Shown: positions 13,515 through 41,723, counted from the stretch's first letter. The stretch: 64,000 nt of DNA from Blastocystis sp. Blastoise (GCA_039096225.1 JBBPEB010000009.1:868001-932000), one strand, 5' to 3'. The notes: generated by a model not told the origin, from the letters alone. A program made the numbers and translations.

Positions 13515-14408
13515 TTCTTCCGTTCTTCGAACTGCAGAAGGGGGTATGCAAACCCCGCATAGAGTCTGCGCGACGCGCGCAGCCATAAGCGGGGAAGACA
13601 TCCCCCTTTTTGTTCTCGACGGAAGAATTAATAACATTTCTGAAGTAAAATAACCATGGGAGTGTAGGGTAGTGTGTGTGTGTATTTATTTTTTCCCATG
13701 TTTATTTATTTTTAATTTATTTGTGTTCCGATTCCAACGTGAAACGTAAAGTGATCAAGGAGAAACTCATAGTAATCATAAAAGAAATAAAATACACAGT
13801 CCAACCCTCCCCTTTACAGGGAATATTCATGGGAAATGGCTCCATCGTTGGTAAAGTGAGTAAAATAATCACGGGAATACAGAAAGAAATACGAAAAGAA
13901 GCACAGAATGTGCTAAATAAACACACACCCCGACCCTCCCTTTATATAGAGAAAAGATGAAATGGATGGTTCTATCTAAAAAGAAATAATAGAAATAATC
14001 ACGGGAATATATAAAAATAAAAATGTATGTATAGTGATCAATAAATAATATAAAAAGTCATGATAATCATAAAAAAATTTATATAAAAAGAGTAAAGTGA
14101 TCAAGGTATGTATTTATAGTGGGTGAAAGAAAAGCTGGTGGTGGTGTGGTCTTGTAAAAAGATGTACCCACCACCACGATTATAACGAGAGACTTTTGGA
14201 AACAAGGGTGACCGTTATGGAAATAGGATGCGTCATCGTGAATTGTCCAATCAAATTGCTTAAAAATGTAAAAATGAGGGATTTTGGAACACAAAAACAC
14301 AATTATAATAGGGAAACTGGGGAAACTAATTGTGTTCCAGTTGTTTTATGTGGCGGAATGTATATCAATTTTCTAGAACATTCTAGAACATTCTCGAAAC
14401 TTCTAGAA
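13515..14408 (+). repeat. Left terminal inverted repeat of the PLV
   Basis: Reverse complement of 40829-41723 with a few substitutions and indels. Confidence 0.95.
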
Positions 14409-14418
14409 CATTCTAGAA
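14371..14418. promoter_or_regulatory. Heat-shock-element-like array (10 alternating nTTCn/nGAAn units) upstream of recombinase 1
   Basis: TTCTAGAACATTCTAGAACATTCTCGAAACTTCTAGAACATTCTAGAA, ~90 bp before ATG 14507. Confidence 0.7.
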
Positions 14419-14506
14419 CATGAGAATCTTAGATATTTTATTTTGATTTTCTTATGTATTATTCTTTTGAAAATAGAAGTTTTAAATATTCTACTTGAGA
14501 AAATCA

Positions 14507-15442
14507 ATGAAAAATACGAATTATGACAAGTATCTTTCTGTTATACAAAATTCAAATTATTCTGATATTTGGAAAAAACGTTTAACCAATTATTTCAATT
14601 TATATATTTTCCCATTACCATTTAAAAAGTTCTCAGAATTCTTAAAGAATCCTTATTCATTCATGGATTATATGGTAAATGAGCGTAAAATCAAAATTAG
14701 TCCAATGAAATCGTTATGTGAATTGATTTTATTTATTATACGTAATGTTTCTTCATTAAATAAAGAAGGTATTTTAAATAAATGGTGTGAATTTTATGTG
14801 ATTATCAATTCAATGTATGAAAAATATCTGGATAATAAGAAACGTACTTTGATTCAAGATCTTATTAAAGATGGTATTACGACTCCTTATTTACATGAAT
14901 ATCACGATAAATTAGAAAATTATAATCCATTACGATTAATATTAGATTTTTACTCCTATCTTCCTCCTGCTCGTGCTGATTATGCTCAATTATTCATTCT
15001 ATCACCAGAAGATACTATTGATCCAGCTATTCATAAGAATTATATTGTTTATGATAAAGAGAAACATACTGGTTCTATTCTATTAAATGATTATAAAACT
15101 GCTGGTAAATACTCTACAATTCAATTAGATGCACCAAAAGAATTGATTGAAGATCTAGAATTACTCTTAAAAAGAAATCCAAATCGTAAATTTATATTTG
15201 AATCTTCTGTACGAACTGGATTTACTACTAAAGCATTTGATTGGTTTGTGAATAAGCATTTAAAACAAATCCATCCAAAATTAACCATTAATGCATTAAG
15301 AAAATTATATGCTACAACTACAACCAATACATTCCAAGATATAGAAAATTCTGCTTCTGCTTTATGTCATAATGATTATACACATATTAATTCTTATGTA
15401 TCTTTAGAAAATAATAATTTATTTAAAAAATTAATTGAATAA
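14507..15442 (+). CDS. Tyrosine recombinase 1 (PLV/virophage type)
   Basis: PPARADY (R), NDYKT (K), NALRKLYAT, ALCH, INSY (Y) catalytic pattern; first ATG at 14507. Confidence 0.8.
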   Translation: MKNTNYDKYLSVIQNSNYSDIWKKRLTNYFNLYIFPLPFKKFSEFLKNPYSFMDYMVNERKIKISPMKSLCELILFIIRNVSSLNKEGILNKWCEFYVIINSMYEKYLDNKKRTLIQDLIKDGITTPYLHEYHDKLENYNPLRLILDFYSYLPPARADYAQLFILSPEDTIDPAIHKNYIVYDKEKHTGSILLNDYKTAGKYSTIQLDAPKELIEDLELLLKRNPNRKFIFESSVRTGFTTKAFDWFVNKHLKQIHPKLTINALRKLYATTTTNTFQDIENSASALCHNDYTHINSYVSLENNNLFKKLIE

Positions 15443-15515
15443 TTTTATGTTTTCATGCTTGTTTTGTTTTAAATTTGAATATAACTAAACAACTAGTAAT
15501 AAAAGGATATAAAAA

Positions 15516-15890
15516 TTAATTAAAAGGTAAGAAAGATAGATTATTATTATTATTTTGATATTGATTTTGTTGTTGATTACTTTTCATAGTTGGCATAAAC
15601 ATATTATTGGGTTGAATAAGATTTTTATCATCTTGATATTGATTCTCATTCTTCATATATTGTTTATCCAATAGCATTTCAAGACGTTGATGAATCACAG
15701 GATCATCTATATAAAGTAGCATATTTCTACAATAACTTAGTTGTAAATCACTAAGATTTTTGTTGTTATTGTTATTTAAAAATTGTTCTAATAGATTCGC
15801 TATTTCATTCTTTTTGGATTTAATTCCTTCTTCTTTTAGATTCTTCATCACACGACAAAAATAAGAATAACTAAGATATTTCTTGTTCAT
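15516..15890 (-). CDS. Hypothetical viral protein, 124 aa
   Basis: ATG-initiated ORF with an upstream HSE array (15986-16008) and downstream TGTTTAGTT (15483-15491). Confidence 0.6.
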   Translation of the reverse strand: MNKKYLSYSYFCRVMKNLKEEGIKSKKNEIANLLEQFLNNNNNKNLSDLQLSYCRNMLLYIDDPVIHQRLEMLLDKQYMKNENQYQDDKNLIQPNNMFMPTMKSNQQQNQYQNNNNNLSFLPFN

Positions 15891-15985: not shown

Positions 15986-16008
15986 GAATGTTCTAGAATG
16001 TTCTAGAA
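15986..16008. promoter_or_regulatory. HSE-like array (5 units)
   Basis: GAATGTTCTAGAATGTTCTAGAA, ~100 bp upstream of ORF 15890(-). Confidence 0.6.
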
Positions 16009-16012: not shown

Positions 16013-16633
16013 TTAACAAGGCATAAGATTTCCATTAGAAAGTAAATAAAGTAAAGAATAATAAAAGCAACCATTTGCATTACTTGTAGTTTTTTGGTGT
16101 TGAATAGGATTATACTGAATATTATGATTTTGAATAAATGATTTTGAAAAAGTAGGTTCATTTCCTAATGACGAATAGTGTTCTATATTTTTATTACCAT
16201 TATAAATAACAGCTTCAAAATGACCATTATAAGGATCACTAGGACTTTCATGAAAGATCATATTAAATTTAGTTTGATCTTGATCTATATTTTGTTCAAA
16301 ATCATCATAACTATTATAATAATTATAAGATTGAGAATTCGTTTTATTTAATTGTTTCATAACATTTTCAGCACGATCACAAGCAACAGAAGAGGTAGGT
16401 TTATTTAAATAAGCATAATTATATAATTGAGATATTAAAGAATTGGGTATATTACAATATTGAGATAGAGTTTGTTTGAAATTATCAGGGGATCTAGGAG
16501 TAACATGACGAGTTTTATCAGATATAATAGGATTATCGCAATTCATTGAATTTTGAATTAATTTCTCATCTTTACTCTTTACCAGATCCCCTCCCCTGAG
16601 TTTTTTGATAACATATACTTCTTTTCTTTCCAA
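16013..16633 (-). CDS. Adenain-like cysteine (maturation) protease, probably expressed by -1 frameshift from the upstream ORF
   Basis: NGHFEAV (His), IEHYSSLG, IQYNPIQHQ (Gln), SNANGCFYY (Cys) resemble adenain/PLV protease motifs. The ORF-track start is TTG; first ATG is 16546. Confidence 0.65.
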   Translation of the reverse strand: MERKEVYVIKKLRGGDLVKSKDEKLIQNSMNCDNPIISDKTRHVTPRSPDNFKQTLSQYCNIPNSLISQLYNYAYLNKPTSSVACDRAENVMKQLNKTNSQSYNYYNSYDDFEQNIDQDQTKFNMIFHESPSDPYNGHFEAVIYNGNKNIEHYSSLGNEPTFSKSFIQNHNIQYNPIQHQKTTSNANGCFYYSLLYLLSNGNLMPC

Positions 16634-18306
16634 AACATTTGTTCACCTCTATCTAATATTTCATTATTATCCATCTTCTGTTTTATAATTTGTAATTGTT
16701 TTAAATCATTTTTAGCTACTTTACGTTTCCTTTGAGCTACTTGTGCAGGTATTACAAAATCTGTATAAGCTGATACTATTGGAGGTAAATCACCACCTCT
16801 TTTCTTTTTAGCTTCTTTTCCTCTTCTCATTCGTTCTAAGAATTCTTCTTTACTTAATTTAACACGACCACCATATCCTCTACGTTTAGCTCTTCTTGCA
16901 GCTATTCGTTTATCCCTTTCATCTTCTTTCCATTTTCTATCGACTTTTTCTTTATCATTTTGAGGAAAACCATAAATCTTATAAGGATAACTTTGTTCAT
17001 CACGAGACATGGGTTTATAAGGTTGAGGAGGTTGTTGAGTTTGTGGATGTCTTGGTGTATCATTTTGAGGTATATCAAATGTATCAACATTCAATTCAGG
17101 TTCAATTTCTGGTTGTGGTTGAATGGGTGCTGCTGGAGGAGGTGGTTGACGAACAGGAAGATTCTTTCTAAGTTGTTGTTTCATACTGTGCAAATCTCTT
17201 AATGGTTGTACTTCTTGATCTAATAATTCTGATTGTCGTTCAACTGTATCGTAACCATCATTAATTGTTCCCATTACTATACCATTACCTATTTGCTTTT
17301 TCATTTCATTTAATGCTTGTTGACGTTTTAATTTTTCCATTTCAAATTCCATATCATTTAATTCACTTGATTGTTGTGCCAAATGTGTATCATAATAAGC
17401 TTTTCTACCTTTAGCAAAAGAATCCATACCTTTATCAACTACACCTAGAAGAGATGGTGCTATAGTTGTAAATGAGTCCCAGAACCCACCACCTCTTTTT
17501 ACTCTTAATATACCATCACCACTTTGAGCTGAATCTAAATCTATATATTTTGGTATAATAGAGGGTCTTAACATTCTTCTTAATTTTGGATTAATAATCA
17601 TTTTCTTATTTTTAATTGCATTCATAATTGCTGAAGCAACAGATATAGGAATTTTTCCACCACGTTTAATTTTATGTTCATAGAATCTTTTGAATTCATC
17701 ATCAAGATCATGATGACCGTCACCAACATATTGAGCTAAAATAGCTAATGCATCACGAGCTTTTCTATTAGCTTTTTTATCTACAATAGCATCTCTTATA
17801 TCTAATACATTTCGTTGATACATATCTTTTACTTTATTTTTAATTGCATCACCAATACCAGAACCTTGATTATTCTCAAATTTATTGATTTCTGATTTAT
17901 TTGGAATAATTCCTCTACCAGATTTACGTCTTGGTTTACATGGATTTAATACTTTATATTGACGATCTTCACCATCTATTTTATCTTCTTCTGGACCAGC
18001 TGCTTTCATTACACCTTTACCTGCTGCTCTAGCACGAATTAATGCACCATTTCCTTGTGGAACAGCATCTTTACCAAATGTTTTAGAACGATCTACATAA
18101 TCATCTTCTTTACCATCATGTATTTCTTTACTTTCTAAAGTAGACACAGGCATAGATGAATTTGGACCTATTTCATGAAATATTGGATTATATTGATCCA
18201 TTTTATGTAATGGTTGTGTATTATATCGCCTATATTCTTTTCCAGTTGAAATTAAATTCATACCAAAAGTACCAGGACTTGGCATTCCTAATATACAACT
18301 TTGCAT
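16579..18306 (-). CDS. Basic, low-complexity putative core/DNA-condensing polyprotein (575 aa)
   Basis: K/R-rich, with about a dozen GxG/GG motifs (GNGA, GRGI, GSGI, RGGK, GDGI, RGGG, GNGI, RGGD, GEGI); adjacent to the protease. Confidence 0.6.
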   Translation of the reverse strand: MQSCILGMPSPGTFGMNLISTGKEYRRYNTQPLHKMDQYNPIFHEIGPNSSMPVSTLESKEIHDGKEDDYVDRSKTFGKDAVPQGNGALIRARAAGKGVMKAAGPEEDKIDGEDRQYKVLNPCKPRRKSGRGIIPNKSEINKFENNQGSGIGDAIKNKVKDMYQRNVLDIRDAIVDKKANRKARDALAILAQYVGDGHHDLDDEFKRFYEHKIKRGGKIPISVASAIMNAIKNKKMIINPKLRRMLRPSIIPKYIDLDSAQSGDGILRVKRGGGFWDSFTTIAPSLLGVVDKGMDSFAKGRKAYYDTHLAQQSSELNDMEFEMEKLKRQQALNEMKKQIGNGIVMGTINDGYDTVERQSELLDQEVQPLRDLHSMKQQLRKNLPVRQPPPPAAPIQPQPEIEPELNVDTFDIPQNDTPRHPQTQQPPQPYKPMSRDEQSYPYKIYGFPQNDKEKVDRKWKEDERDKRIAARRAKRRGYGGRVKLSKEEFLERMRRGKEAKKKRGGDLPPIVSAYTDFVIPAQVAQRKRKVAKNDLKQLQIIKQKMDNNEILDRGEQMFWKEKKYMLSKNSGEGIW

Positions 18307-18799
18307 TTTTTTATTTCAATTATAAAATTATTTATAAACAAAACAAATATATTAATAAAAAATAAATTTAACATTAAAAATTTATAAATTAGTTAAATCA
18401 ATAATAGTATCATTACTATTAGTATTCTTCGTAGATTTATCGATGACTTTAATAGAACGAGCATATAAACCAATATAATACTTGTTATTATAACGATGAA
18501 TACCATGTATTGTAAATAATACTTTACATAACGTATTTGGTGGAATATACTTTTCACGTATTTCTTCGTAAGTTAACTTAGGATCTTTACCGATATTAAT
18601 CTTCTTATCTCTTTTATCAGTAACTAGGGTCACGCCGCAGGTCCGGGGCCTAACGGCACCGGACCGCGGCTGCATAAAATAATAACAGTTTGGCTTTTAT
18701 TTTCTTTTTTTCATTATTATATATTATCTATTATATATTAGTATTTATTATTTATTATTTATTATCTATTATATATTATATATTATATATTATTATCTA

Positions 18800-19290
18800 T
18801 TATATATTATATATTATATATTATATATTATATATTATATATTATATATTATATATTATATATTATATATTATATATTATATATTATATATTATATATTA
18901 TATATTATATATTATATATTATATATTATATATTATATATTATATATTATATATTATATATTATATATTATATATTATATATTATATATTATATATTATA
19001 TATTATATATTATATATTATATATTATATATTATATATTATATATTATATATTATATATTATATATTATATATTATATATTATATATTATATATTATATA
19101 TTATATATTATATATTATATATTATATATTATATATTATATATTATATATTATATATTATATATTATATATTATATATTATATATTATATATTATATATT
19201 ATATATTATATATTATATATTATATATTATATATTATATATTATATATTATATATTATATATTATATATTATATATTATATATTATATAT
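18800..19290. repeat. (ATTATAT)n 7-mer microsatellite within Helitron A
   Basis: ~490 bp of near-perfect 7-mer; the equivalent region at ~53310-53410 is short. Confidence 0.9.
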
Positions 19291-19305
19291 TACTTTAATA
19301 ACACT

Positions 19306-19372
19306 TCTTATACTCTATATGGGAGTTACAATCATTTATTGATTGTAATCAGGTTCAATTCCTGATATAAGT
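19306..19372 (+). ncRNA. tRNA-like (mascRNA-like) cloverleaf, subtype 1
   Basis: CTTATA / CTCT-ATATGG-GAG / TTACAATCA-TTTAT-TGATTGTAA / TCAGG-TTCAATT-CCTGA / TATAAG. Confidence 0.6.
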
Positions 19373-22228
19373 ATCTTTTAGATTTTTTTTTATAATATGT
19401 AAAAAACTAAAAGAATTTCTTAGATACTAAAAACGAAATTTGTATTATTATATATTATTTATTATTTTTAAAATATATTTTGTATTTATTAATAATGAAA
19501 CAACTGTTTTAAGCTTTTTTTGAGTTTTTAAAGTCAACAACTTTAGAAATGAGTCACAATGTGAAGTACTCTTGAGTATTTTTAAGTCATAAAATTCATT
19601 TAAATAAGCATAATATAATAATTTTAACTCATTTCAATACTTTTTAAAAGAATTTTGAAGTTTTATGTATAACAAAGTCAACATTCATTCTAACTTTGAC
19701 AACTAAAACATTTCTTAAAAAGTTAATATTTCTACAGTCGTCTCAAATAATGATCTTAAACACAAATTACTTGAAAACGTAACTTTTAAATAGACTTTAC
19801 CCATTCAAGATCCACTGTATCAAAATAATTTCCTTTAGTCTTTTGATATAATATAGAGTTTATCACACTATTTATTTAAAAAAAGTAAATGTTTTGAATC
19901 TCTTTCTTAAAGACCATTTTTGACACATTATGAAAAGTTAAGACACCTTAACTCATTTTTATAAGCTAATATTTACACACTATACTCAGTATAACGTTGG
20001 CTACACATTGGTCATCACTTTAAGACATTTTATAAACCTTTTGCATTTGCTCATTTACTTCGACCAAAATATTTTCGTCCCTCCTTTTGACATAATATAG
20101 AGTGTGTGGTCTAGTTATATGAAAGTGAGGGGGAATTTTGAATCTCGTCCTCTAAGTCAATCATTTTTACATTTTTCAAAATTTATACCCCTAAACTTGA
20201 TATTTTGACTCAACTTTTCTACAGTGTTCCAAAAACACGATTTTGCTCAAACTGAGTGAAAAATATTTTTTCAATAACTCTCACAACCCTTTACACATCC
20301 ACTCTCTAAAAATAGATTTTGCTATATTTTTGATATGTTGTAGAGTGTCTCTTAGTGTATACTGAACAATATCTCGTTTCTTAAAACTCTCATTTTATGA
20401 CTCACTTTGAACATATTATTACTAATTGAAAGGCTTAAACATATTTTTAAAAGCTAATATTTACATAGTAGACTATATATGACTCTATAAGCACATTAGT
20501 CAACACTTTAGACTTTTTAAAGACACTTTACCATTTGGTCATACACTTTGATCAAAATATTTTCGTCCCTTCTTTTAACATAATATAGGTCATACACTCT
20601 AGTTTAATGAATAAACACTCAAATATTGAATCTCGTCCTCTAAGTCACTCGTTTTTACATTTTTTTAAATTTAAGACCCTTAGAGTTAATTTTTTGGCTC
20701 AATTTTTTTATAGTGCACGAAATTCACGATTTAACATAAACTGAAGTAAAAATAAATTTTAAATAATAGTCACAACCCTTCACACATCCACTCTCTAAAA
20801 ATTATTTTAACTGTACTTTTGATATGTTGTAGAGCTACTACAGCTGTACACTAATTAATATCTCTAAATTTTTTATTCATAGTCTAAGACTATGTTTTAC
20901 ACATTCTTTTGAATTTGACAACCTTAAACTATTTATTTAAAGCTATTATTCATAAAATAAACTTAATATATGATTCTAAACACATATAGAAACCCTTTTA
21001 CTTTTTAAGACACATTTTGTCATTTGGTCATACACTTTGACCTTCATAATTTTGACTCTCCTTTTAATATAGTATAGAGTTATAAGTCTAGTTTACTAAA
21101 CGAAAGTCATTATATTGAATCTCTCACTCTAAGACCACTTAATTCACATTTTTCAAAATGGTCACTTTTAAACTTGTTATTTTAAAACTTTGTTTTAACT
21201 ATAGTAGTTTGATGACCTATTGATTACAATACTACAATATTAGTCCATTATAAGAAGATCGAAGAAAATATCGATCACTCAAAAATCGTCCTCAGGAGCT
21301 CAAAATTGGTACACCTAGGTTTTTGAACCTCCTGAATCAGAATATGATGTCAAATTGAGAATCTAAATTTGACTGTTAAGGCCTCACGTGTTCAATATGA
21401 AAAAGTCTTTAAAAATAGATAAATATAAAGAATAAACACGGATAACGTATATTGTGGGATTGATAAAAAATCAAGTTTACCCCATGTTTATTTTTCAATT
21501 GTCTGGTCAACAATTTTTATCGGGGTCATCCCAAAGAGCCAATCAAAAACGACTCAAAAATCATGTTTTCTGTTCTTTTATTAATAACTTTTTAATTATA
21601 AACAATATCGCTTAACCAAATATACGGTGCACAACTACATGTTATATCCTATTGAACTGTGTTTCAACCAAAAGTTAACTCCCCGTAAGTTTAGAGGAGT
21701 TGCGGCGACAAACTATAGTATATAGTAGCCAATCAAATGCATTTTCCAAAAACTGACCAATGGGAATTTTTTTGCCTATTCTCATATATATAGTAATGAT
21801 ATCAATAGTAACATTCTTCGATGCATTAATAGGTACTTTAATTGTAATCTTATACTTACCATTATCCATACGTACAAAATTAACAATATCACCATCAGGA
21901 CATAATTCACATAATTTACGATAAAGTTCTTTATAAGCAGTTAAGAATACTTGATTATCATCTTCAATTGTTAATAAAGTCCATTTATCACGTGTAACAA
22001 TATAACCAAATAAACATGGTGTAGCATCAGTAGAAATACATACACGATGATTATTATTTAAAAGAACAGCATTTTCTTTGGTGTCATCCCATTGTAAATT
22101 AAAGTTAGAAGTATCAAGAATAGTAGGTTTTTTAAATTCAGTTGTAGACATTTTTAGTTAAGTATTTAGTAAAAATATAAGTATTTTAATACTAATATTT
22201 TACGATATTCTTTTCAAATGAATCAATT

Positions 22229-22276
22229 TTCGAGAAGGTTCTAGAAGGTTCTAGAAGGTTCTAGAAGGTTCTAGAA
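22229..22276. promoter_or_regulatory. HSE-like array (10 units) upstream of the SSB gene
   Basis: TTCGAGAAGG(TTCTAGAAGG)3TTCTAGAA, ~80 bp upstream of ATG 22151(-). Confidence 0.7.
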
Positions 22277-23272: not shown

Positions 23273-23290
23273 GAACCTTCTAGAACATTC
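23273..23290. promoter_or_regulatory. HSE-like element (4 units) beside CCAAT boxes in a divergent promoter
   Basis: GAACCTTCTAGAACATTC, with CCAATCA at ~23190 and ~23263. Confidence 0.55.
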
Positions 23291-24135: not shown

Positions 24136-24265
24136 TTCTAGAAGGTTCTAGAAGGTTCTAGAATGTTCTCGAAGGTTCTAGAACATTTAAAAATATAAAG
24201 TAATATTTACTATTATAGAATGTTCTAGAAGGTTCTAGAAGGTTCTAGAAGGTTCTAGAAGCTTC
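24136..24265. promoter_or_regulatory. Two HSE-like arrays (10 + 10 units) upstream of the primase-helicase
   Basis: 24136-24183 and 24218-24265: alternating TTC/GAA with variable 2-nt spacers. Confidence 0.7.
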
Positions 24266-24351: not shown

Positions 24352-27189
24352 ATGGAAAATTCACAAATTCATTTTGTTTATACTTTTGGTTCCTTTAATC
24401 ATGATAACTCAAAAGATAATCATAGTGAAATTATTATACCAAATCCATTACCATTTTATAAAAGTCTATTTACTAATTATCAAAATCAAAAAGAATTATT
24501 ACATTATATTGATTGTACTCCTTGTAATACATCAACTAATTATAGAAGATTATGGTTTGATTTAGATTATCACCAAATATCTGATGATTTTTCTTTTCTA
24601 ACAGATTCTTTTATTCATGAATTTATTGAAGAAATATGTAATCATTGTATTCATTATTATAATCAAGAATTTATTTCGCTTGTGTATACAAAGAAAGAAG
24701 TGAATAAGAAGACAGTTCATAATGAAATACATTATTCATGGGGAATTCATATATATACGAATTGGTTTGTAAATGGTGATTATTTATTTTTCTTATATAA
24801 TAGTATGATTTTGAATACCAAATTGGTTGATTTATGTAAAACATATAATTTAGATATAAAAGAATTCATTGATTATAATGTTATTGGTAAACCCAGAAAG
24901 AATAATGGTTGTATGTTTCTTGGTTGTAGCAAAGATAATTCTCCATCTACTTATAAATTATATGAAGAATATACCAATAAAACATGGAAGAAAATAGATG
25001 ATGAAATCGATGAACATTATTATTTCAAAACATTATTGAATTATAAGAATGAAGATGATATTATAAGTGATATTATTAATCCTATTATCTTTTCTAAATT
25101 AAAACAATATTCACGTTATAAACGTTATTATGCAAGATTAAATAATTGTTCACGTACTATATTATGTTCTATACAAGATATTAAAGATATTCCTATGTTG
25201 ATTTCTACAGATACTATATTGGATACTACAGCATCTAAAGAAGCTTTATTAGAACGATATTTATTATTGATTGGTTCTATTGAAGATATGAATTATTTTG
25301 AATCCCATAATACTTGGTATAAATTATGTTGTGCAGCAAAACAGATTTGTAATACAACAAGAGGATTAGAATTATTTAAAAATTATTCATTACGTTATGG
25401 CCATGATCGAAGTGATGATGTAATTGAATCTACATGGAATCATATACAAGTTGATCCTACTCATTTATCGAATAATTATATTTTGAAGATATTAATGGAT
25501 AATAAATTATTTAATAAAGATGATGATAATGATTTCATATTTATGTCTATTTTAGAATGTATTCAATCCTTTAATCTTGTAGATTCACAAACATTAGTTA
25601 TGTTATTTCAATTATTAGAATTTAATGAAATTGTATCTATTATATTAGATAAAGATAATTTTATCTTATATACATTTGATGAATATAATATCTTAAGACG
25701 TTGTAAGAATAATTATGATATTAATTTCTTTGAAACCAAAATAACTACATTTATGAAATCGATTGTAGAGAAATTCAAACTATCAAGATTATATTCCAAA
25801 GAGAATGAACAACATCAAAAAATAGTTGATAAAATAATGTCTGCTTCTGTTACTAATGAATATCATTATAAAGAATGGTTGAATCGTTATTTGAAGACTT
25901 ATGGTAAATCTTATAAAGAATATTTAGATACGTATATGGTTCATAAAGAACGTGTTATCTATACACAACTTGGTTATTTATATCCAAAAGAATCTACAGA
26001 AGAAGATCCTAGACAATATTATATCCAACCATATCATAAAGAAGATATGGTGTTTGAAGATTTATTAATTGATACTGAATTTAATGTAAGTTGGAATATT
26101 AATAATGAACAGAAAGATATTATCCAATTATTTGAACAACATATTGCAAGATATTGTGAATTCGATAAGAAATATGAAAGTATTATGTTACGTATCTTAA
26201 CCACTGCTTTCTATGTCAATACTCAGAAAACTGTTTCTTATATATTATATGGTAGTACAGGTAGTAATGGTAAAACAATAACAACTGATTTAATATCTCG
26301 TATTGTAGGTAGTAATCAATGTATTATAGTAAATCCAGATAATTTAGAAGAAACATCTATAGCTCCTAAGATTGTAGATATGTCTAATAAAACAATGTAT
26401 TATATGAATGAATTAATAGAAGAAGATGTTACTGGTAGAAAGAAAACATTTAATCCATTCTCTTCTAAAGTCTTTAAAGAAATAGCAGAAAAGAAAGAAG
26501 GTGCTAGTGCTCGTAAATTATTCAGTAATATATTTACAAAAGTTCATTTCACGGGTACTTTATTTATGACAAGTAATATCCAACCTACTGCTGTGAATGC
26601 TGGTCCTATTGAAAGAAGAGTCTGTTTCTTACCATCATGTTGTCGTTATTTCCCTCCTGGTAATGCTAATTTATATGAAGATTATGTAGATCATAATTTA
26701 CCTAAACGTAAACAGACAGTAGAAAAGAGATTGAAACCAAATCATTATGAAATGGATTATACTCTATCCGATAAATTCTATCAGAATCGTTCAATTATCT
26801 TTAGTTATCTAGTAAGTAATTATTTCTATTCTAGTATGCAATTAGATATGCATGAATTAGATAATGAATATCATATAAGTGAATGTAAGAAACGATTCTT
26901 TGATCGTAGTACAGAAGGATATGATTTGAAATCTTTTGTTGATAACCATATTACTATAGATCCTTATTATTTGAATGTAGTTACTATTGAAGATATTTTT
27001 AATAGTTATAAGAAAGTGAATAATAATAATCAATTTACGATTAAGAAAGATTTAGATAAATTTACAAATGCTTTATTTGGTTGTTTAAGTAGTAAAGATA
27101 CATTTAATTCTATAGATATTGTGAATATTCATAGAAAACATACTTCAAATTTCTATAAGGGGGGAATGCTATTGGTATTTGTGGTTTAA
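24352..27189 (+). CDS. AEP primase(-polymerase) - PriCT-2 - D5-like SF3 helicase fusion
   Basis: LWFDLD and GIHIY (AEP motifs); HNTWYKLCCA..GLELFKNYS..TW (PriCT-2-like); LYGSTGSNGKT (Walker A), YYMNE (Walker B), LFMTSN, IERRV. The true C-terminus may extend to 27353. Confidence 0.85.
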   Translation: MENSQIHFVYTFGSFNHDNSKDNHSEIIIPNPLPFYKSLFTNYQNQKELLHYIDCTPCNTSTNYRRLWFDLDYHQISDDFSFLTDSFIHEFIEEICNHCIHYYNQEFISLVYTKKEVNKKTVHNEIHYSWGIHIYTNWFVNGDYLFFLYNSMILNTKLVDLCKTYNLDIKEFIDYNVIGKPRKNNGCMFLGCSKDNSPSTYKLYEEYTNKTWKKIDDEIDEHYYFKTLLNYKNEDDIISDIINPIIFSKLKQYSRYKRYYARLNNCSRTILCSIQDIKDIPMLISTDTILDTTASKEALLERYLLLIGSIEDMNYFESHNTWYKLCCAAKQICNTTRGLELFKNYSLRYGHDRSDDVIESTWNHIQVDPTHLSNNYILKILMDNKLFNKDDDNDFIFMSILECIQSFNLVDSQTLVMLFQLLEFNEIVSIILDKDNFILYTFDEYNILRRCKNNYDINFFETKITTFMKSIVEKFKLSRLYSKENEQHQKIVDKIMSASVTNEYHYKEWLNRYLKTYGKSYKEYLDTYMVHKERVIYTQLGYLYPKESTEEDPRQYYIQPYHKEDMVFEDLLIDTEFNVSWNINNEQKDIIQLFEQHIARYCEFDKKYESIMLRILTTAFYVNTQKTVSYILYGSTGSNGKTITTDLISRIVGSNQCIIVNPDNLEETSIAPKIVDMSNKTMYYMNELIEEDVTGRKKTFNPFSSKVFKEIAEKKEGASARKLFSNIFTKVHFTGTLFMTSNIQPTAVNAGPIERRVCFLPSCCRYFPPGNANLYEDYVDHNLPKRKQTVEKRLKPNHYEMDYTLSDKFYQNRSIIFSYLVSNYFYSSMQLDMHELDNEYHISECKKRFFDRSTEGYDLKSFVDNHITIDPYYLNVVTIEDIFNSYKKVNNNNQFTIKKDLDKFTNALFGCLSSKDTFNSIDIVNIHRKHTSNFYKGGMLLVFVV

Positions 27190-27397
27190 TGATTGATAAT
27201 ACTTATAATGAATGTGTGGATACAGATTTATTCTGTTTATCCAATTGTTTATCTAAGAAAGAAGAAATTGTTTATAGTGAAGATCAATATCATAATACGT
27301 CATCAACAAAACGAATTTTAATAGATAATACTTTATATGCTATACCAAATTAAATATATATTTATTTTTTATTATAAAAAGTTGTTTTGTTTTAAAA

Positions 27398-29753: not shown

Positions 29754-32189
29754 TTATATATAAGAGATAGTTAATAAAACAACACAAGGATAATCACATG
29801 TTATAAAGAACATATTATCATGAGGTAATAACTTTAATAATTTACGATTACAATAATAGACATTCTTATTGATCTTATTTGATATACCTTCATATTTAAT
29901 ACCATTCGAATAGTAATAAGGTAGATTTGTAGTATCAATAACATGAATATTATTCTCATATTCATTAGTAAAGCATCTTAATGAAATAGGATATAAGTAA
30001 TCAGTGGATTGACCATACACTGATATAATTTGTATATTCGTTAAGTATTGATATCCATAGACATTGGTTTTCTTCAATTCATAAATTAAATTCTTACTCG
30101 TACTAAAATCACAATATACTTCATCATAAGCTTTGAAACGTATATCACTACCATTCGGTTCACATATATTACAAATTATATTTCCTTTGAATAATTCATC
30201 AAATCTTAAATCTATATGATGATCAATTGTGATTGGAGAATTTATATTACTATAAGTAACATATTTATCAGATAAAGGAAAACTAAATGTAGGATAATAT
30301 GATCCATTTATATATCCAGTACATAATTTAGATGCATTTGTTTGGATCGTATCAGTATCATTCTGAATAATAATATCTTTTAAGATCTTATTCTGGATAT
30401 TCAATGTAGGATATTCAGCATAGAATTGTGTGTCTGCTGTTAAACAATTCAAACATAATTTCTTAATGGTTTCACTAGGTTGAATCGTATCGACTGTATC
30501 TGAGAATTCTAAGAATCCTCTTAAAATACAATTATCATTGAAATTCACATATTGTTTATTCTTATCAGTATATCGTATTGTAATATCTTGTATTGTATTC
30601 AAATAAGGAGACACATTAATATTCATAATATCATGAAATTCATTATTGCCTTTATAATTATTCACATTGAATGAATATAAAGAATTCTGACTATTATCTA
30701 CTATATTCGATTGAGCTATTAACATTCCTTTTGGACGACTACTATCAATATTATGAATACCATAATTAATAATTTCATCATGACCTAATTTATTATATCC
30801 TAGAATTTCACCTAATTCTTGAGCTTGAGAAAAATCTATATGATAACTATCAGTATAACACTTATAATTACCATCTAAATCTAATGTATTCAAATCAGCT
30901 ATTTTGTCTGGTATTAATTGTTTACCATAAGATACATACCAAGCAAAACATCCTTGTTCATCATAAACTAAATCAGGACGTATATTATGTAGAGCACCAC
31001 GATACTTAAATAAGGAGTGCTCTATATCTGTAGCTGTAAATGTGAATGACGTAGAATCAGTACCTTTACAAGATAAATATATTATATATCCATCCTTATT
31101 GTCCATAGTCTGAGTATCTTTGGATATACTTAAATAATCCGTATAAATTGTATTATTGATTGAACTTTCTAATAATTCATAGAATTTGTTTTCTGTGTAA
31201 TTTCCAGGAGGAACAGTGAATGTAGTTTCATGAACACCATCATAACCACTCAATTGTCGAACAATCATTGTATTATATCCATCTTCCACAAAGACTGTTC
31301 TTTTAATTCTATTTAATGTAATTTCCTCTTGAAGTGAAGTATATGTCAATGTTTCTGAATCTTCAAATAAGCCAGTGAATAATTGTTTTTCTAAACTGAG
31401 TATATTATTACTTGACCATTGGAAATAAAATTTATGTTCATCAGCTAATACACATTTCATAATTCCATTAGAACCTTGTGTTGGAACAATATAACTTGAA
31501 TGATCACTCACACCATCAGTAAAGAATTCATTCAATTCATAGATTCCTGTTGATGTAACAGGAACATTATAAGAAGTTAATTGAGGTCGATATATGGTTA
31601 TAGTATCATCATCATATCTCATCATTAAACGATTAAATTTATCACCCCATTTAGCTGATACACAACATACAGCTATCCACCAAAACTCTATATCCGTATA
31701 AGTACCTTTTGGAAAGTAAAAACCACGTCTTTTCTTATAAATTGTAATTTCACAATACCAATCATCTCTATCAATGGTTATTGTTGGGGCTTCATTAATT
31801 TTGACAGTGGGATCAATATCAGGAGAATCTTTTATTACTGGTCTATCACATACATCAAAATGACATAGTTCTAATAATTGTGGAATAGAATAATTTTTCT
31901 GATCTAAAGTAATTGTTTGAATTTGTTCATTACCATTGACACGAGTATTTATATATTTGAATATTTGTGTTTTTGTGAAAGTATCAAATAGAGGCACACT
32001 TTCACTACCAATTAAATTAAGATCAATATAAGAAATGATATTTTTAGTGATATCAATAGAATTCGATAAATGTATATTGAATTGATTATCAATACAACGA
32101 ACATCAATAGGGACTACATGTGTTTTAATACGAGTATCCTTCTCTTCTAATGAAGTCTGTTCTTCATAATTATCATCATCAAGTTCCAT
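29754..32189 (-). CDS. Large penton/minor-capsid-like structural protein (811 aa)
   Basis: Repeated penton insertion motif (LDQKNYS, FPKGTYT, VPPGNYT) and IQDITIRYTDKNKQYVNFN, similar to the 35221 penton. Confidence 0.6.
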   Translation of the reverse strand: MELDDDNYEEQTSLEEKDTRIKTHVVPIDVRCIDNQFNIHLSNSIDITKNIISYIDLNLIGSESVPLFDTFTKTQIFKYINTRVNGNEQIQTITLDQKNYSIPQLLELCHFDVCDRPVIKDSPDIDPTVKINEAPTITIDRDDWYCEITIYKKRRGFYFPKGTYTDIEFWWIAVCCVSAKWGDKFNRLMMRYDDDTITIYRPQLTSYNVPVTSTGIYELNEFFTDGVSDHSSYIVPTQGSNGIMKCVLADEHKFYFQWSSNNILSLEKQLFTGLFEDSETLTYTSLQEEITLNRIKRTVFVEDGYNTMIVRQLSGYDGVHETTFTVPPGNYTENKFYELLESSINNTIYTDYLSISKDTQTMDNKDGYIIYLSCKGTDSTSFTFTATDIEHSLFKYRGALHNIRPDLVYDEQGCFAWYVSYGKQLIPDKIADLNTLDLDGNYKCYTDSYHIDFSQAQELGEILGYNKLGHDEIINYGIHNIDSSRPKGMLIAQSNIVDNSQNSLYSFNVNNYKGNNEFHDIMNINVSPYLNTIQDITIRYTDKNKQYVNFNDNCILRGFLEFSDTVDTIQPSETIKKLCLNCLTADTQFYAEYPTLNIQNKILKDIIIQNDTDTIQTNASKLCTGYINGSYYPTFSFPLSDKYVTYSNINSPITIDHHIDLRFDELFKGNIICNICEPNGSDIRFKAYDEVYCDFSTSKNLIYELKKTNVYGYQYLTNIQIISVYGQSTDYLYPISLRCFTNEYENNIHVIDTTNLPYYYSNGIKYEGISNKINKNVYYCNRKLLKLLPHDNMFFITCDYPCVVLLTISYI

Positions 32190-35960: not shown

Positions 35961-36998
35961 ATGGTGAATAAAATAAATCCATTAAAAGAAACACGTAAAG
36001 GATGTGGAGTCTTAGAATTTAAATATGGAAAATCCCATCATAAAACATATGAATCAAAATTCATATTGATTATTGCAAGAACATTCTCAGGAAAATCTTT
36101 CTTAACTGTGAATCTCTTATGTTCTATGGATCTTAAAAATAAATATAAGCAAGTCACAGTAATTTGTCCTGATGCATCCAATAAGAATGAATGTTATACA
36201 TCCTTTCAAGATATTTGTGAACATGCTGGAATTGATTATAAATGGTATGATTCTGTAGATGATAAATTTAAAAAGATTAAAACTGTTGATGAATTAGTCA
36301 ATACATATAAATTACCAGAACATAATTTTATTGTATTGGATGATATCTATCCATTATCTAGACAAACCAAACAATTGATTGTATCTATATTATCTAAAGG
36401 TCGTCATTATAAACAGAATGCTATTATATGTCTTCAAAGTCATACAGATGTTACCAATCAATCTATATTAAGTCAAGTATCTCATTTCTTTATTAATAGT
36501 CAAATCTTAAAACGTGATCCTGGATTCTTACCAGATAAATTAAAGATTATGCCATCAAATCTAAATGAAATTCTTACAGATGAAGAATTAATGAATGATC
36601 CACATCAATTCTTTATGTTAAAACAAGGTAGTGATGATTTAACAATATGGACAAATCCTGATTGTGGTAGTAAACAGAATGTATATAAGATGGTAAAGAA
36701 AAGGAAATGGACAGAAGAAGATAGTGAAAAAGAGAAACGAGAAGAACAAGGTGAAGTATCAGGTAGTGGTATTAAACGTCCTAATGAACATATATCTACA
36801 TATGAAAAGAAAATGAAGAAGTTTTTACCTGTTGAAGAAGAAGTCTCATTGAAAGGTATTGAACGAGATGAAAAAGATAAACCTAAAGAATCCATCTTAC
36901 AAATCATACAAGATCAAATCATACAAGATAGTCAACGACGCATTTTCAATCCTTATTTAAATAAAAAACATTATTCTGGTTATCCATCTTTTCATTAA
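35961..36998 (+). CDS. A32-like (FtsK/HerA) DNA packaging ATPase
   Basis: ILIIARTFSGKS (Walker A), IVLDD (Walker B), KGRHYKQNAIICLQ (arginine finger and Gln sensor). Confidence 0.9.
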   Translation: MVNKINPLKETRKGCGVLEFKYGKSHHKTYESKFILIIARTFSGKSFLTVNLLCSMDLKNKYKQVTVICPDASNKNECYTSFQDICEHAGIDYKWYDSVDDKFKKIKTVDELVNTYKLPEHNFIVLDDIYPLSRQTKQLIVSILSKGRHYKQNAIICLQSHTDVTNQSILSQVSHFFINSQILKRDPGFLPDKLKIMPSNLNEILTDEELMNDPHQFFMLKQGSDDLTIWTNPDCGSKQNVYKMVKKRKWTEEDSEKEKREEQGEVSGSGIKRPNEHISTYEKKMKKFLPVEEEVSLKGIERDEKDKPKESILQIIQDQIIQDSQRRIFNPYLNKKHYSGYPSFH

Positions 36999-37050
36999 TT
37001 TTTTATATTTTAATTTGTTAAATAAACCATAATTATTTTATTGTTTTGTT

Positions 37051-38088
37051 ATGAGTTCAATTACAAAAAGATATTTAAAACAAAATTGTGATCCACGATT
37101 ATTTGGAGGATCACCACCAAAATCAAATAGACGTGATCTTTATCATAAACGTTATGTAAGATATGGAGGAACTGGTTTTGAAGAAATTGTTAGACAACAA
37201 GCTAAAGATGCTGATTGGGCTGATTTTAAAAATGGTGTCTATACTGCATTACCTATTTTAGGTACATTAGGAGCATTTGCTGGATATAATTATTATCAGA
37301 AACGTAAAGAACAAAAACGTCAAGAAAAAGCAAAAGAAGAAAAGAAAAGACAATTTGAAGAACATATTGAAGATGCTAATCGAGATGATGAATTATATAA
37401 TGATGATGCTACTTATCAACCAAAGAGAATAACAAGAAAAATGATGGCTGATGATGATAAAGATTATAATAATGCAAATCTTGAAGATGAAAATTATGAT
37501 GATATATTTGGTCAAGGTATACATAGAAGGCATCAGAAACATCGTAAAGAACATGGGAGTCACCGAGAAAAAGAAAAGAAAACAAGTAAATTCGTAACTC
37601 CTCAAATAAAAATTATTGCTAAGAAGTCTATTCGTTCTAGTAATGTAAAGTCTAATAAGAAGAAATTACAAGATATTAAAGAACGATTACCTAAAAATGA
37701 TGAGCATGTGTCTGTACGTGATATTGTTAATGTCGTTATCGATAAAGAATATCCTATGGATCCAAAACAAAAGCATTCTATTATTGCGAATACTGCTATT
37801 AAAACTATTAAAACGATTGTTCCTATTGTAGTGAATGCATTAAAATACTATTATCCTTCTCTTGGTATCCCTATTGATTTCGCTTATAATATGATTACTA
37901 CTGATGATGATAAGAAACGTAAAGAAACTGCTGATAACTACTTTAAAAATCCTGGTGGAAGTGGTGTTACAAAAGAGAATGCTGAACGTTGTGGTGGTGC
38001 TCTTGTCAACTCTACATCCTTTGATACTACTACTAATTTAATTATTAATCTTGTTCAATTCTTCTTAAAAAAATTCCATTTAAATTAA
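37051..38088 (+). CDS. Hypothetical viral structural/core protein with one hydrophobic segment
   Basis: 345 aa; ALPILGTLGAFAGY followed by charged tracts; several GG/GxG motifs. Confidence 0.6.
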   Translation: MSSITKRYLKQNCDPRLFGGSPPKSNRRDLYHKRYVRYGGTGFEEIVRQQAKDADWADFKNGVYTALPILGTLGAFAGYNYYQKRKEQKRQEKAKEEKKRQFEEHIEDANRDDELYNDDATYQPKRITRKMMADDDKDYNNANLEDENYDDIFGQGIHRRHQKHRKEHGSHREKEKKTSKFVTPQIKIIAKKSIRSSNVKSNKKKLQDIKERLPKNDEHVSVRDIVNVVIDKEYPMDPKQKHSIIANTAIKTIKTIVPIVVNALKYYYPSLGIPIDFAYNMITTDDDKKRKETADNYFKNPGGSGVTKENAERCGGALVNSTSFDTTTNLIINLVQFFLKKFHLN

Positions 38089-39052: not shown

Positions 39053-40537
39053 ATGATACAAAGTGCTCGTTTAAATGTTTCAAATAAAGGATTAGTAGGC
39101 GTAAATCATCGTGCTACTGGTCATGAATATCGAAATTATATTGTTCCAGGATCTATTCCTGATGGAGAAGAACGTTATCCAATTAATTATTCTATTGCTC
39201 CAAATTCATTATATGCTGTTAAGAAAATTGAAAGTAATATGGTCAATAGAGCAACATCCAATCCATTTTTCTCCTATTTATCAGAAACCAGACAAGATAT
39301 TATACAAAGTTCCTTAGAAGAATCAGAAGAAAGTGAACCAATAGATGAAGGATCTGGGTTATTACCTGATGGTAGAATTCCGAAGAACTTTACAAGAAAA
39401 CTCATTTATGCTCATGATTATGTCTTACCTTATATGAAACAAAATCATATGTCTGATTATGCTAAATATTCAAGATTATTAAATCCTCGTACAATTGATA
39501 GTGCAATTGATTTTACTAAAAGAGATCGTGATGGTTATTTATATTCTAGAGGTGGTAATTTATTTTCTAATATTTATCACACTGTAAGTGATGTATACAA
39601 TGTGTCTGATAAATTAACTGGAGGTATTAATAATATCACTCATGGAATAAGTAATGCTGTTGATTATGGTGCAAATAAATTCAAAGATCTCAAGAATTGG
39701 TGGAGAGATATTAATGTTGATCCAAAAGAAGGATTCAATGATATTAAAGGAAAACTTGTAAGTGATAGAAATAATTTATATGATAATTGGAAATTAACTG
39801 ATGATAATGAAGCTAAGAAAAAGAATAAATTATTAGCTGATAACTATTTTAGATTTGCTCATATGTCAGGTAATGATACGAAACAACAAAGACTTAACAA
39901 AAGTAAATCTTTAGAAGATCAAGCAAAAACATTTCATGAAAATTATATTCCCTATGCAGAAAACCCAACATTCGTTAATAAAGTTGTTAATACTGCAACA
40001 AATGTATCAAAACCTGTGTATAATGGTGTTAAGAAAGTTGCAAACTCTGTTGTTAGTGGTGTAAAGAATTTATTTAATACCTTTTCTGGATATTACTATG
40101 GTAAAAACCCAGAGGACGAAATACCACAAACAGAAAATTCAATAGAAACAAATAATAATGTTATACCAACTTCTTCATCTACTCCTGATACTCTAACACA
40201 AGAAAATATTCATAATATTACTATTGAAGATTCAAATCCTCCAAATTTAATTCCTCTTATGAATGATCCTACTGTTCCTTTACCTGATACTGTTCCAATG
40301 TCTCAAGCAATAACGAATAAATTCACTCCAAATATTACACCTGTAGCCCCTATTCCTAATCCAGTAGAAAATGTCACTCTTGAAAATAAAAGAAATAAAA
40401 AAGAAGATGATGAATTTCAATCATTTGATGAAGATGATGGTGAGGTATTTTATGATCTCGAAGAAGGTAATGGATTACGTAGAAAAAGACGTATTTCAAA
40501 AAATAAAAAATTAAGAAATAAACGTAGAAAACATTAG
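39053..40537 (+). CDS. Hypothetical viral core-like protein (acidic patch, then basic tail)
   Basis: 494 aa; GSGL, RGGN and GNGL motifs; C-terminal RRKRRISKNKKLRNKRRKH. Confidence 0.65.
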   Translation: MIQSARLNVSNKGLVGVNHRATGHEYRNYIVPGSIPDGEERYPINYSIAPNSLYAVKKIESNMVNRATSNPFFSYLSETRQDIIQSSLEESEESEPIDEGSGLLPDGRIPKNFTRKLIYAHDYVLPYMKQNHMSDYAKYSRLLNPRTIDSAIDFTKRDRDGYLYSRGGNLFSNIYHTVSDVYNVSDKLTGGINNITHGISNAVDYGANKFKDLKNWWRDINVDPKEGFNDIKGKLVSDRNNLYDNWKLTDDNEAKKKNKLLADNYFRFAHMSGNDTKQQRLNKSKSLEDQAKTFHENYIPYAENPTFVNKVVNTATNVSKPVYNGVKKVANSVVSGVKNLFNTFSGYYYGKNPEDEIPQTENSIETNNNVIPTSSSTPDTLTQENIHNITIEDSNPPNLIPLMNDPTVPLPDTVPMSQAITNKFTPNITPVAPIPNPVENVTLENKRNKKEDDEFQSFDEDDGEVFYDLEEGNGLRRKRRISKNKKLRNKRRKH

Positions 40538-40611
40538 TTAATTTTAATTTATTTTATTTATTATTATTTTAAAAAACTAAACAATTTGTTTTGTTATTTA
40601 TAAAAATTAAT

Positions 40612-40782
40612 TTAAAAATCAATAAAATTCTTGATATAATCTTCATATTCATCATCTTCACTTACAGTATGAAAACTGTCCATATCAGAATCACTATCAC
40701 TTAATTCATCAACTTCAAAATTTCCATAAGGTTTCCAAGTACCTTCTTTATAATCTGGAGCAAATTGCTTTGGAGAATCCAT
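40612..40782 (-). CDS. Small acidic viral protein (56 aa) downstream of the right-TIR HSE array
   Basis: ATG 40782; HSE array at 40829-40866 upstream; TGTTTAGTT downstream (40575-40583). Confidence 0.55.
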   Translation of the reverse strand: MDSPKQFAPDYKEGTWKPYGNFEVDELSDSDSDMDSFHTVSEDDEYEDYIKNFIDF

Positions 40783-40828
40783 AATAAATAGTATAAAAAT
40801 AGAAAAAAACGCATAATACAATTTGTTA

Positions 40829-41723
40829 TTCTAGAAGTTTCGAGAATGTTCTAGAATGTTCTAGAAAATTGATATACATCCCGCCACATAAAACCACTGG
40901 AACACAATTAGTTTCCCCAGTTTCCCCAATATAATTGTGTTTTTGTGTTCCAAAATCCCTCATTTTTACATTTTTAAGCAATTTGATTGGACAATTCACG
41001 ATGACGCATCCTATTTCCATAACGGTCACCCTTGTTTCCAAAAGTCTCTCGTTATAATCGTGGTGGTGGGTACATCTTTTTACAAGACCACACCACCACC
41101 AGCTTTTCTTTCACCCACTATAAATACATACCTTGATCACTTTACTCTTTTTATATATTTTTTTTTATGATTATCATGACTTTTTATATTATTTATTGAT
41201 CACTATACATACATTTTTATTTTTATATATTCCCGTGATTATTTTTATTATTTCTTTTTAGATAGAACCATCCATTTCATCTTTTCTCTATATAAAGGGA
41301 GGGTCGGGGTGTGTGTTTATTTAGCACATTCTGTGCTTCTTTTCGTATTTCTTTCTGTATTCCCGTGATTATTTTACTCACTTTACCAACGATGGAGCCA
41401 TTTCCCATGAATATTCCCTGTAAAGGGGAGGGTGTGAGCGTGTATTTTATTTCTTTTATGATTACTATGAGTTTCTCCTTGATCACTTTACGTTTCACGT
41501 TGGAATCGGAACACAAATAAATTAAAAATAAATAAACATGGGAAAAAATAAATACACACACACACCACCCTACACTCCCATGGTTATTTTACTTCAGAAA
41601 TGTTATTAATTCTTCCGTCGAGAACAAAAAGGGGGGATGACTTCCCCGCTTATGGCTGCGCGCGTCGCGCAGACTCTATGCGGGGTTTGCATACCCCCTT
41701 CTGCAGTTCGAAGAACGGAAGAA
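40829..41723 (-). repeat. Right terminal inverted repeat of the PLV (inner end carries an 8-unit HSE array)
   Basis: Reverse complement of 13515-14408. Confidence 0.95.

Follow-up and report, generated by a model that had tools for sequence, protein, structure and literature searches.

The pairing of an AEP primase-helicase with a tyrosine recombinase (YR) is common in Polinton-like viruses (PLVs) (Barth et al. 2026 preprint 10.64898/2026.10.13.758929; Bellas et al. 2023, PMC10120064), and the link between AEP and recombinase has been called 'elusive' (Barth et al. 2026). Multiple capsid genes are also on record: in Trimcap PLVs, three major capsid proteins (MCPs) plus two pentons occur, and heterotrimeric capsomers have been proposed (Bellas & Sommaruga 2026 preprint 10.64898/2026.06.19.733378). 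From Blastocystis, a Blastocystis hominis virus with PolB, an integrase and unrecognisable virion proteins has been reported (Starrett et al. 2021, PMC8502044). Here we analyse an element at positions 13514-41724 of a 64,000-nucleotide stretch (the window) of Blastocystis sp. Blastoise (GCA_039096225.1, JBBPEB010000009.1:868001-932000). It is almost certainly an integrated PLV, and we cautiously favour the reading that it belongs to a lineage of Blastocystis PLVs not described before, which reside in the nucleus and are likely induced by stress.

Three families of described viruses invite comparison. The AEP-SF3/YR PLVs (Bellas et al. 2023; Barth et al. 2026; Bulzu et al. 2025, PMC12220804) resemble the element in size, terminal inverted repeats (TIRs), MCP, penton and ATPase genes, the AEP-SF3 and YR pair, an endogenous multicopy state and the usual absence of a target duplication. 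The element differs from them in a capsid that sequence does not connect to other families, two recombinases, nGAAn arrays and a Blastocystis-type 3' motif, and a gut-protist host was not found in the available text of those papers. Trimcap PLVs likewise have several MCP genes, sometimes two pentons, and stramenopile (MAST) hosts; they are aquatic and have three highly divergent MCPs, whereas here two paralogues are 28-30% identical and no third MCP was found by the MCP1 profile. The Blastocystis hominis MELD virus of Starrett et al. shares the host genus and has PolB and integrase where our element has AEP-SF3 and YR. 'Blastocystis' appears nowhere in the main text of Bellas & Sommaruga 2026, and in the available text of Bellas et al. 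2023 it is named only among screened genomes.

Anatomy, copies and gene set

A preliminary description of this DNA had placed the ends of the element to within 1 base and had recognised a TIR-bounded block of dense open reading frames (ORFs) in intron-rich surroundings, which it took for an endogenous PLV of a protist; the fold, TIR and copy evidence bears this out. The TIRs are 98.4% identical, and 19 uninterrupted, densely packed ORFs or ORF pieces provide 20,544 bp of coding sequence in the ~25.0 kb that remain after a Helitron-like insert is subtracted. The element has a GC content of 27.1%; its flanks, at 22.7% and 23.4%, hold host genes rich in introns as judged by eye. Of the features by which PLVs (Polisuviricotina) are broadly defined, a double-jelly-roll MCP, a single-jelly-roll penton, an integrated TIR-bounded genome of 15-45 kb and an AEP-SF3 protein with a likely tyrosine recombinase are found; the P-loop ATPase is a candidate for another, the A32-like packaging ATPase. 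Protein-primed PolB and rve integrase, which define the Maverick-Polintons (Polintoviricetes), had been said to be missing, and neither was matched in the 19 ORFs or ORF pieces (Pfam, PHROGs) or in 15 proteins (NCBIfam).

An AlphaFold2 model of MCP1 (pLDDT 74) is a double jelly-roll that matches Sputnik 3j26 in Foldseek (E 4.5e-12). MCP2 is paralogous to it (28% identity across 418 columns in BLASTP, E 2e-39; hhalign 100%) and is assigned the same fold by homology; the earlier claim that the products of both 32264 and 33907 are double jelly-rolls thus stands on a predicted fold for 33907 and on homology for 32264. MCP1 and MCP2 each occur in two variants (~93% and 89-91%). The product of 35221 is predicted to fold as the penton expected in the morphogenesis module. 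Its siblings P0169-P0171 are identical over approximately 50 residues at the N-terminus and 80 at the C-terminus and divergent between them (75-78% overall), which suggests exchange of a variable surface domain. The best structural matches for MCP1 and the penton in BFVD are labelled 'MELD virus sp.' (A0A8S5L5M3, A0A8S5L5B1, A0A8S5L5C7): a 420-residue protein for MCP1 (TM 0.62, 15% identity), and a 996-residue putative penton and a 236-residue protein for the penton. These proteins have a large-plus-small penton pattern that our element may share, at only 14-18% identity. They may belong to the virus of Starrett et al., in which case that virus would be distantly related in structure but would replicate by another set of genes.

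The copies of the element were counted from protein clusters, contig counts being summed within 90% clusters. Blastocystis sp. Blastoise holds 18-21 near-identical copies (MCP1 19, MCP2 20, ATPase 18, YR1 19 and YR2 21 members), and gene order is preserved across consecutive locus tags. Since siblings of YR1 (99.0-99.7% in 9 of 9) and of the full-length ATPase (98.8-99.7% in 9 of 10) are near-identical, the family has spread recently. Truncated siblings exist as well, for example an ATPase of 255 residues and YR2 of 125 and 534 residues. As the closest proteins come from Blastocystis sp. Blastoise, this member of the tortoise clade is very likely the host; long introns and a GC content of 21-23%, as reported for that clade, are consistent with the window (Lind et al., PMC10690189).

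More distant relatives surround this family. Among 87 MCP1 matches, 83 (82 from ENA or Logan and one from NCBI; 370 member sequences) are 55-63% identical, and three further MCP1 families at 48-51% reside in the Blastocystis sp. Blastoise genome. MCP2, the penton and the primase-helicase also have ENA or Logan relatives, on contigs of up to 27.5 kb. Relatives of different genes recur on contigs of the same lengths (27,391; 23,956; 23,710), suggesting that they come from the same genomes, and two MCPs therefore seem to be a trait of the lineage. The habitat of these relatives is presumably gut Blastocystis. Proteins P0077, P0079, P0080, P0167, P0175, P0274 and P0279 represent at least three divergent families of the same lineage in the same Blastocystis genome; the primase-helicase of the divergent families is 39% identical, and locus tags 002974-002976 repeat the order MCP2-MCP1-penton.

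Searched against 1.84 billion protein representatives, the MCP1 profile gave 11 matches with E of 0.001 or lower. Ten of these were traced further: members of the MCP1 or MCP2 families account for nine and a distant Logan singleton for the tenth, the eleventh match being a 44-residue fragment. No described relative of the capsid thus emerged at the sequence level, in keeping with the earlier suggestion of a possibly undescribed lineage. For the described MCP groups of PLVs and virophages (GKS1-3, PgVV, TsV, Trimcap, Dino, Virophaviricetes), this profile search is an indirect comparison. The singleton (P0281, 403 residues; E 1.9e-4, hhalign 81%) possibly marks a sister lineage. An MCP1 tree of 16 rows (13 representatives below 85% identity from 80 matches, seven short matches being omitted, plus MCP1 and MCP2 of the window and one MCP2 sibling) did not resolve the branching order of lineages. 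Pattern scans, which detect close relatives only, found none in IMG/VR (ATPase, MCP1, primase-helicase), JGI metagenomes or GTDB genomes, and no useful match came from tblastn comparisons of MCP1 and the ATPase with phage records.

The replication and recombination genes largely follow the preliminary description. The AEP-SF3 fusion is supported by phrog_1156 (E 2e-9), by TIGR01613 for sibling P0161 (E 1.4e-8), by conserved motifs and by weak PriCT_2 and DUF5906 matches of its relatives. Both proposed tyrosine recombinases are likely. In ESM Atlas, YR1 matches Preplasmiviricota clusters at 0.98, and in one of these 16% of the members have PF00589; YR2 is linked at 0.91-0.93 to clusters of which one has PF00589 in 15%. 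YR1 carries ARADY (155), YKT (196), NALRK (262), CHN (287) and SYV (296), motifs that we take to have the catalytic roles usual for this family. YR2 is not a recent duplicate of YR1 (BLASTP E 0.057). The gene split by the Helitron-like insert had no database match and is possibly an SSB gene. The P-loop ATPase is likely a packaging ATPase of A32/FtsK type; no A32 match was obtained in Pfam, NCBIfam or PDB searches. Against PDB, phmmer and hmmsearch returned nothing significant for the primase-helicase profile, the 177-residue ORF or the ATPase, and the 177-residue ORF had no match in Pfam, PHROGs or NCBIfam either; by its degenerate motifs it is a candidate for the adenain-like cysteine protease of Polintoviricetes and Gosseviruses.

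Table 1. Features of the element and of its insertion site, numbered from the first base of the window
Feature	Position	Strand	Evidence or remark
Added left 5-mer TATTA, likely donor coupling sequence	13509..13513	+	not in empty target
Left TIR	13514..14408	+	897-column alignment, 98.4%
nGAAn array, 10 units	14371..14418	.	136 bp before YR1
YR1, likely tyrosine recombinase, 311 aa	14507..15442	+	ESM Atlas and motifs
ORF, 124 aa	15516..15890	-	nGAAn array upstream
nGAAn array, 5 units	15986..16008		upstream of ORF124
ORF, 177 aa, possible adenain-like protease	16013..16546	-	degenerate H..S..Q..C order, by eye
ORF, 575 aa, basic, possible core protein precursor	16579..18306	-	six G-x-G-hydrophobic motifs
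SSB-like gene, 3' part	18382..18623	-	downstream of Helitron-like insert
Non-autonomous Helitron-like host element, non-viral	18624..21799	-	3,176 bp, inside SSB-like gene
SSB-like gene, 5' part	21800..22151	-	nGAAn array upstream
nGAAn array, 10 units	22229..22276		upstream of SSB-like gene
ORF, 175 aa	22476..23003	-	
nGAAn array, 4 units	23273..23290		upstream of ORF207; also 287 bp before divergent ORF175
ORF, 207 aa	23402..24025	+	nGAAn array upstream
Two nGAAn arrays, 10 units each	24136..24265	.	216 and 134 bp before primase-helicase
AEP primase - PriCT-2 - SF3 helicase fusion	24352..27189	+	frameshifted near 3' end; sibling frame stops at 27353
YR2, likely second tyrosine recombinase, 598 aa, long acidic tail	27398..29194	-	ESM Atlas and motifs
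ORF, 140 aa	29262..29684	-	
ORF, 811 aa, possible large penton/spike, P-x-G-x-Y motifs	29754..32189	-	12 members in 90% cluster
MCP2, paralogous major capsid protein, 490 aa	32264..33736	+	homology to MCP1
MCP1, double-jelly-roll major capsid protein, 407 aa	33907..35130	+	AlphaFold2 and Foldseek
Penton, single jelly-roll with variable central insert, 223 aa	35221..35892	+	predicted fold
P-loop ATPase, 345 aa	35961..36998	+	phrog_2666 E 1.2e-10; Walker A/B, R, Q motifs
ORF, 345 aa, basic, hydrophobic stretch, G-x-G motifs	37051..38088	+	
ORF, 265 aa	38165..38962	+	
ORF, 494 aa, possible core or membrane-contact protein	39053..40537	+	weak tape-measure-like matches
ORF, 56 aa, acidic	40612..40782	-	behind nGAAn array of right TIR
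Right TIR	40829..41724	-	same 897-column alignment
nGAAn array, 8 units	40829..40866		right TIR, ahead of ORF56
Target 5-mer ATTAA	41725..41729	+	identical in empty site
Empty paralogous insertion site	62817..62821	+	in host repeat 58983-63013

The 811-residue ORF scored only 2.8% in hhalign against the penton profile, so its earlier label of second penton is unproven. ORF575 contains six G-x-G-hydrophobic motifs against 0.3 in shuffles, a pattern picked post hoc, and its N-terminus is related to the 494-residue ORF (E 2e-5). The same motif is enriched in four basic proteins (16579-18306, 35961-38088, 39053-40537; 6, 2, 2 and 2 against 0.07-0.3 expected) and absent from the MCPs, the penton and the primase-helicase; it is a possible site for a maturation protease.

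Although no gene is missing and the TIR is found at either end, two genes are broken in the present copy, so that 'complete', as the element had been called, overstates the case. In the primase-helicase, a frameshift near 27160-27170 leaves 945 residues instead of the 1000 of 12 of the 15 siblings listed, at a homopolymer where the lesion may be a sequencing error. The SSB-like gene is interrupted by the Helitron-like insert. Helitrons begin with TC, end in a hairpin followed by CTAG and insert between A and T without duplication. The insert, on the minus strand, has all of these features, ending in a GC-rich hairpin (z -5.3) and CTAG, and is non-autonomous because none of its ORFs encodes a Rep-helicase. 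Relatives 92-94% identical lie outside the element, at 44253, 47150-53506 and 54186. The present copy is likely disabled and could be complemented by its siblings.

Within the insert, 18791-19292 contains ~70 perfect TATTATA copies. A cluster of non-autonomous Helitron-like elements occupies 44253-46760, 47150-53506, 54186-58880 and 63422-64000, together with 41921-44251 on the minus strand, and contains ~490-bp internal repeats and captured host gene fragments with tiny exons; the element at 47150-53506 retains both ends (5' TC, 3' hairpin-CTAG). On the other side of the virus, an intron-rich host gene at 5427-8120 appears by eye to encode a zinc transporter of the cation-efflux type, with a loop rich in His.

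Insertion footprint and terminal hairpins

The virus sits in a host repeat (9699-13514, 41725-41921) that has an empty paralogue at 58983-63013, 21 kb downstream. The two sites are identical over 100 of 100 bases on the left and 197 of 197 on the right. The empty site reads GATAACA / ATTAA / AAGC and the filled site GATAACA / TATTA / ATTCTTCCG...CGGAAGAAT / ATTAA / AAGC, an insertion without plain target duplication. Each TIR carries an inverted inner copy of the end, and in both of them the 5-mer adjoining that copy is TATTA, as at the left junction. TATTAA had been considered as a 6-bp target duplication and was dropped once the empty site was found.

Tyrosine recombinases of the Tn916 type use non-matching coupling sequences and leave donor bases on one side and target bases on the other, without duplication. 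The footprint has this pattern, and insertion by a recombinase is probable. Tn916-type conjugative transposons share the recombinase insertion, the non-matching coupling sequences and the lack of duplication; they differ in being bacterial and capsid-less and in having short ends, in contrast to the 0.9-kb TIRs seen here. Target duplications are also rare in cryptophyte PLVs that carry recombinases (Bulzu et al. 2025), which the footprint fits.

Because each TIR holds an inverted inner copy of its end, the terminal 125 nt (from 13509) can form a single hairpin (-36.4 kcal/mol, z -7.2, 0 of 200 shuffles). Such GC-rich terminal hairpins containing an inverted copy of the very end occupy 13509-13633 and 41605-41729. 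One of the recombinases might be an end resolvase instead of an integrase.

Motifs before and behind the genes

We defined nGAAn arrays as perfect runs of at least three alternating GAA/TTC units with a 5-bp period. The element holds seven (4-10 units) and the 35.8 kb of host flank none; the mean in 300 block shuffles was 0.26 and the maximum 2. Arrays start 84-136 bp before six ATGs, those of YR1, ORF124, the SSB-like gene, ORF207, the primase-helicase and ORF56. No array precedes the other 12 of 19 starts, including those of YR2 and all capsid-module genes. GAA and TTC are invariant and the spacer bases variable, as in heat-shock elements, whose consensus is nGAAn; the ONSEN retrotransposon recruits host heat-shock factors through such boxes (Cavrak et al. 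2014, PMC3907296). ONSEN of Arabidopsis is thus also a mobile element whose boxes couple its activation to host heat-shock factors, but it is a long-terminal-repeat retroelement in which binding and induction were shown, whereas induction of the DNA virus is only predicted here. No such arrays in Polintons were reported in the literature on heat-shock elements that we searched, largely papers outside subscription. Given the motif pattern, we hold it evenly balanced whether host stress switches the element on through heat-shock factor at the arrays.

Behind the genes lies a fixed GU-rich motif, TGTTTTGTT, which occurs 15 times in the element, each time on the sense strand and no more than 100 nt after a stop, and so follows 15 of the 19 genes (shuffles: mean 0.14, maximum 2 in 2000). 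Of the four genes lacking it, one is ORF575 and three belong to convergent pairs, in which they are the minus-strand member. The polyadenylation motif of Blastocystis is TGTTTGTT (Klimes et al. 2014, PMC4159000), and we predict that TGTTTTGTT acts as a polyadenylation signal of host type. TTGTTTTGTT was also considered as a late promoter and was rejected, as it lies behind stops even where genes converge and no start comes after it.

Mechanism, alternatives and significance

From the observed anatomy, copies, footprint and motif positions, we infer that the copies are most likely proviruses of the nucleus, with the following functional steps. Heat-shock factor activated by host stress would bind the arrays and bring RNA polymerase II to YR1, the SSB-like gene, the primase-helicase and the small early genes. 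Tn916-type integrases release a circle by joining the ends across a coupling sequence; YR1, perhaps with YR2, would likewise join the two ends across the 5-bp coupling sequence and free a circle. AEP-SF3 and SSB would prime and unwind replication, with elongation by a host polymerase or by AEP itself, and the terminal hairpin may restore the ends. The late genes, which have no arrays, would supply pentons, core proteins cut by the protease, and capsomers built from the two MCPs, into which the ATPase would package the DNA. Host polyadenylation factors would recognise the GU-rich motif and end transcripts there, and the circle would reinsert at AT-rich 5-mers.

Several points weigh against the undescribed, stress-inducible lineage that we favour. 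YR2 has no array, both the nGAAn and the 3' motifs were defined after inspection, and our literature search gave nothing specific on heat-shock factor in this host. Three minus-strand genes in convergent pairs lack TGTTTTGTT on their own strand, and the motif has one T more than the host consensus. That consensus is enriched only in human subtypes and not in tortoise isolates (Lind et al.); therefore, the virus would either retain the signal of other hosts, in which it is in use, or have one of its own. The footprint comes from a single site, in a paralogous repeat only 90% identical overall, and for the proteins labelled recombinase, protease and SSB, as for the family of the ATPase, the Pfam, PHROGs, NCBIfam and PDB searches gave no significant family match. 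Many studied PLVs, moreover, need a giant virus (Barth et al. 2026; Bellas & Sommaruga 2026).

The arrays might instead be operators or iterons. Under this explanation, which deserves attention and is nonetheless unlikely, the TTCTAGAA arrays would bind a DNA-binding protein of the virus, encoded by a small ORF or YR2, and would control early genes or mark origins, unrelated to heat shock. Arrays do lie inside both TIRs, several small ORFs have no assigned role and ten perfect units exceed what most cellular promoters contain. However, fixed GAA/TTC with free spacers and a 5-bp period is exactly the nGAAn pattern, and the arrays keep a constant position relative to start codons rather than clustering at a single origin. 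The need of several isolated PLVs for a giant virus, the absence of transcription enzymes from the element and the presence of large DNA viruses (egoviruses) in guts (egovirus preprint) would all suit a virophage-like parasite of a giant virus of Blastocystis, whose copies wake on infection and whose arrays and 3' motif are transcription signals of the helper. Yet both motifs resemble nuclear signals of host type, and the available text of the egovirus preprint gives no gene-flux link to Blastocystis, so we think this a poor prospect.

It is improbable that a DDE (rve) integrase acting in trans made a 6-bp TATTAA duplication and that the empty paralogue later lost one base. A TATTAA direct repeat does flank both ends, rve integrases give 6-bp duplications (Bulzu et al. 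2025) and a Blastocystis virus with an integrase has been reported (Starrett et al. 2021). But the loss must then have fallen exactly at the site despite 100 + 197 identical flanking bases, the left 5-mer must match the inner copy in both TIRs by chance, and Pfam and NCBIfam searches gave no rve match in the element. Very improbable, finally, is a family that spreads in the transposon manner within the genome and no longer makes virions. The two lesions and the truncated siblings would be expected of it; full-length capsid genes in most copies, relatives on 23.7-27.5-kb contigs in other assemblies, and a penton whose central insert varies among siblings (75-78% against 95-99%) between identical ends, as expected for an exposed virion protein, argue for the virus.

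The inducible PLV lineage could also be cast more boldly, in a form we regard as doubtful. A new deep lineage of helper-independent nuclear Blastocystis viruses, likely widespread in animal and human guts, would behave like stress-inducible prophages, with heat-shock factor triggering a Tn916-like recombinase excision. A host jump would be recorded by the virus carrying, in a tortoise-clade host without it, the polyadenylation signal known from subtypes associated with mammals and birds.

The preliminary description had stressed an 'unusual gene set'. This is overstated, since AEP-helicase with recombinase is common and three MCPs with two pentons occur in Trimcap PLVs. The isolated capsid family stands out instead, together with the host, the insertion footprint and the host-type cis-signals, which that description did not contain. 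AEP with recombinase and multiple capsid genes were already known in PLVs; new here are the footprint with a virus-derived 5-mer, the nGAAn arrays before recombinase and replication-side genes, and the polyadenylation-like 3' motif. Literature searches on Blastocystis viruses, again largely outside subscription papers, recovered no DNA virus besides the PolB type of Starrett et al. and no report of the present lineage, and the main text of the genome paper has no passage on viral elements.

Blastocystis is reportedly the commonest gut protist of humans, a statement attributed to Lind et al. In Blastocystis sp. Blastoise, ~20 copies of 25 kb would amount to roughly 1.5-2% of a 26-33-Mb genome. 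What triggers endogenous PLVs with no known giant virus, and how tyrosine recombinases integrate TIR-bounded elements, are open questions in the field. The element supplies a footprint for the question of integration and makes that of the trigger testable in a culturable host.

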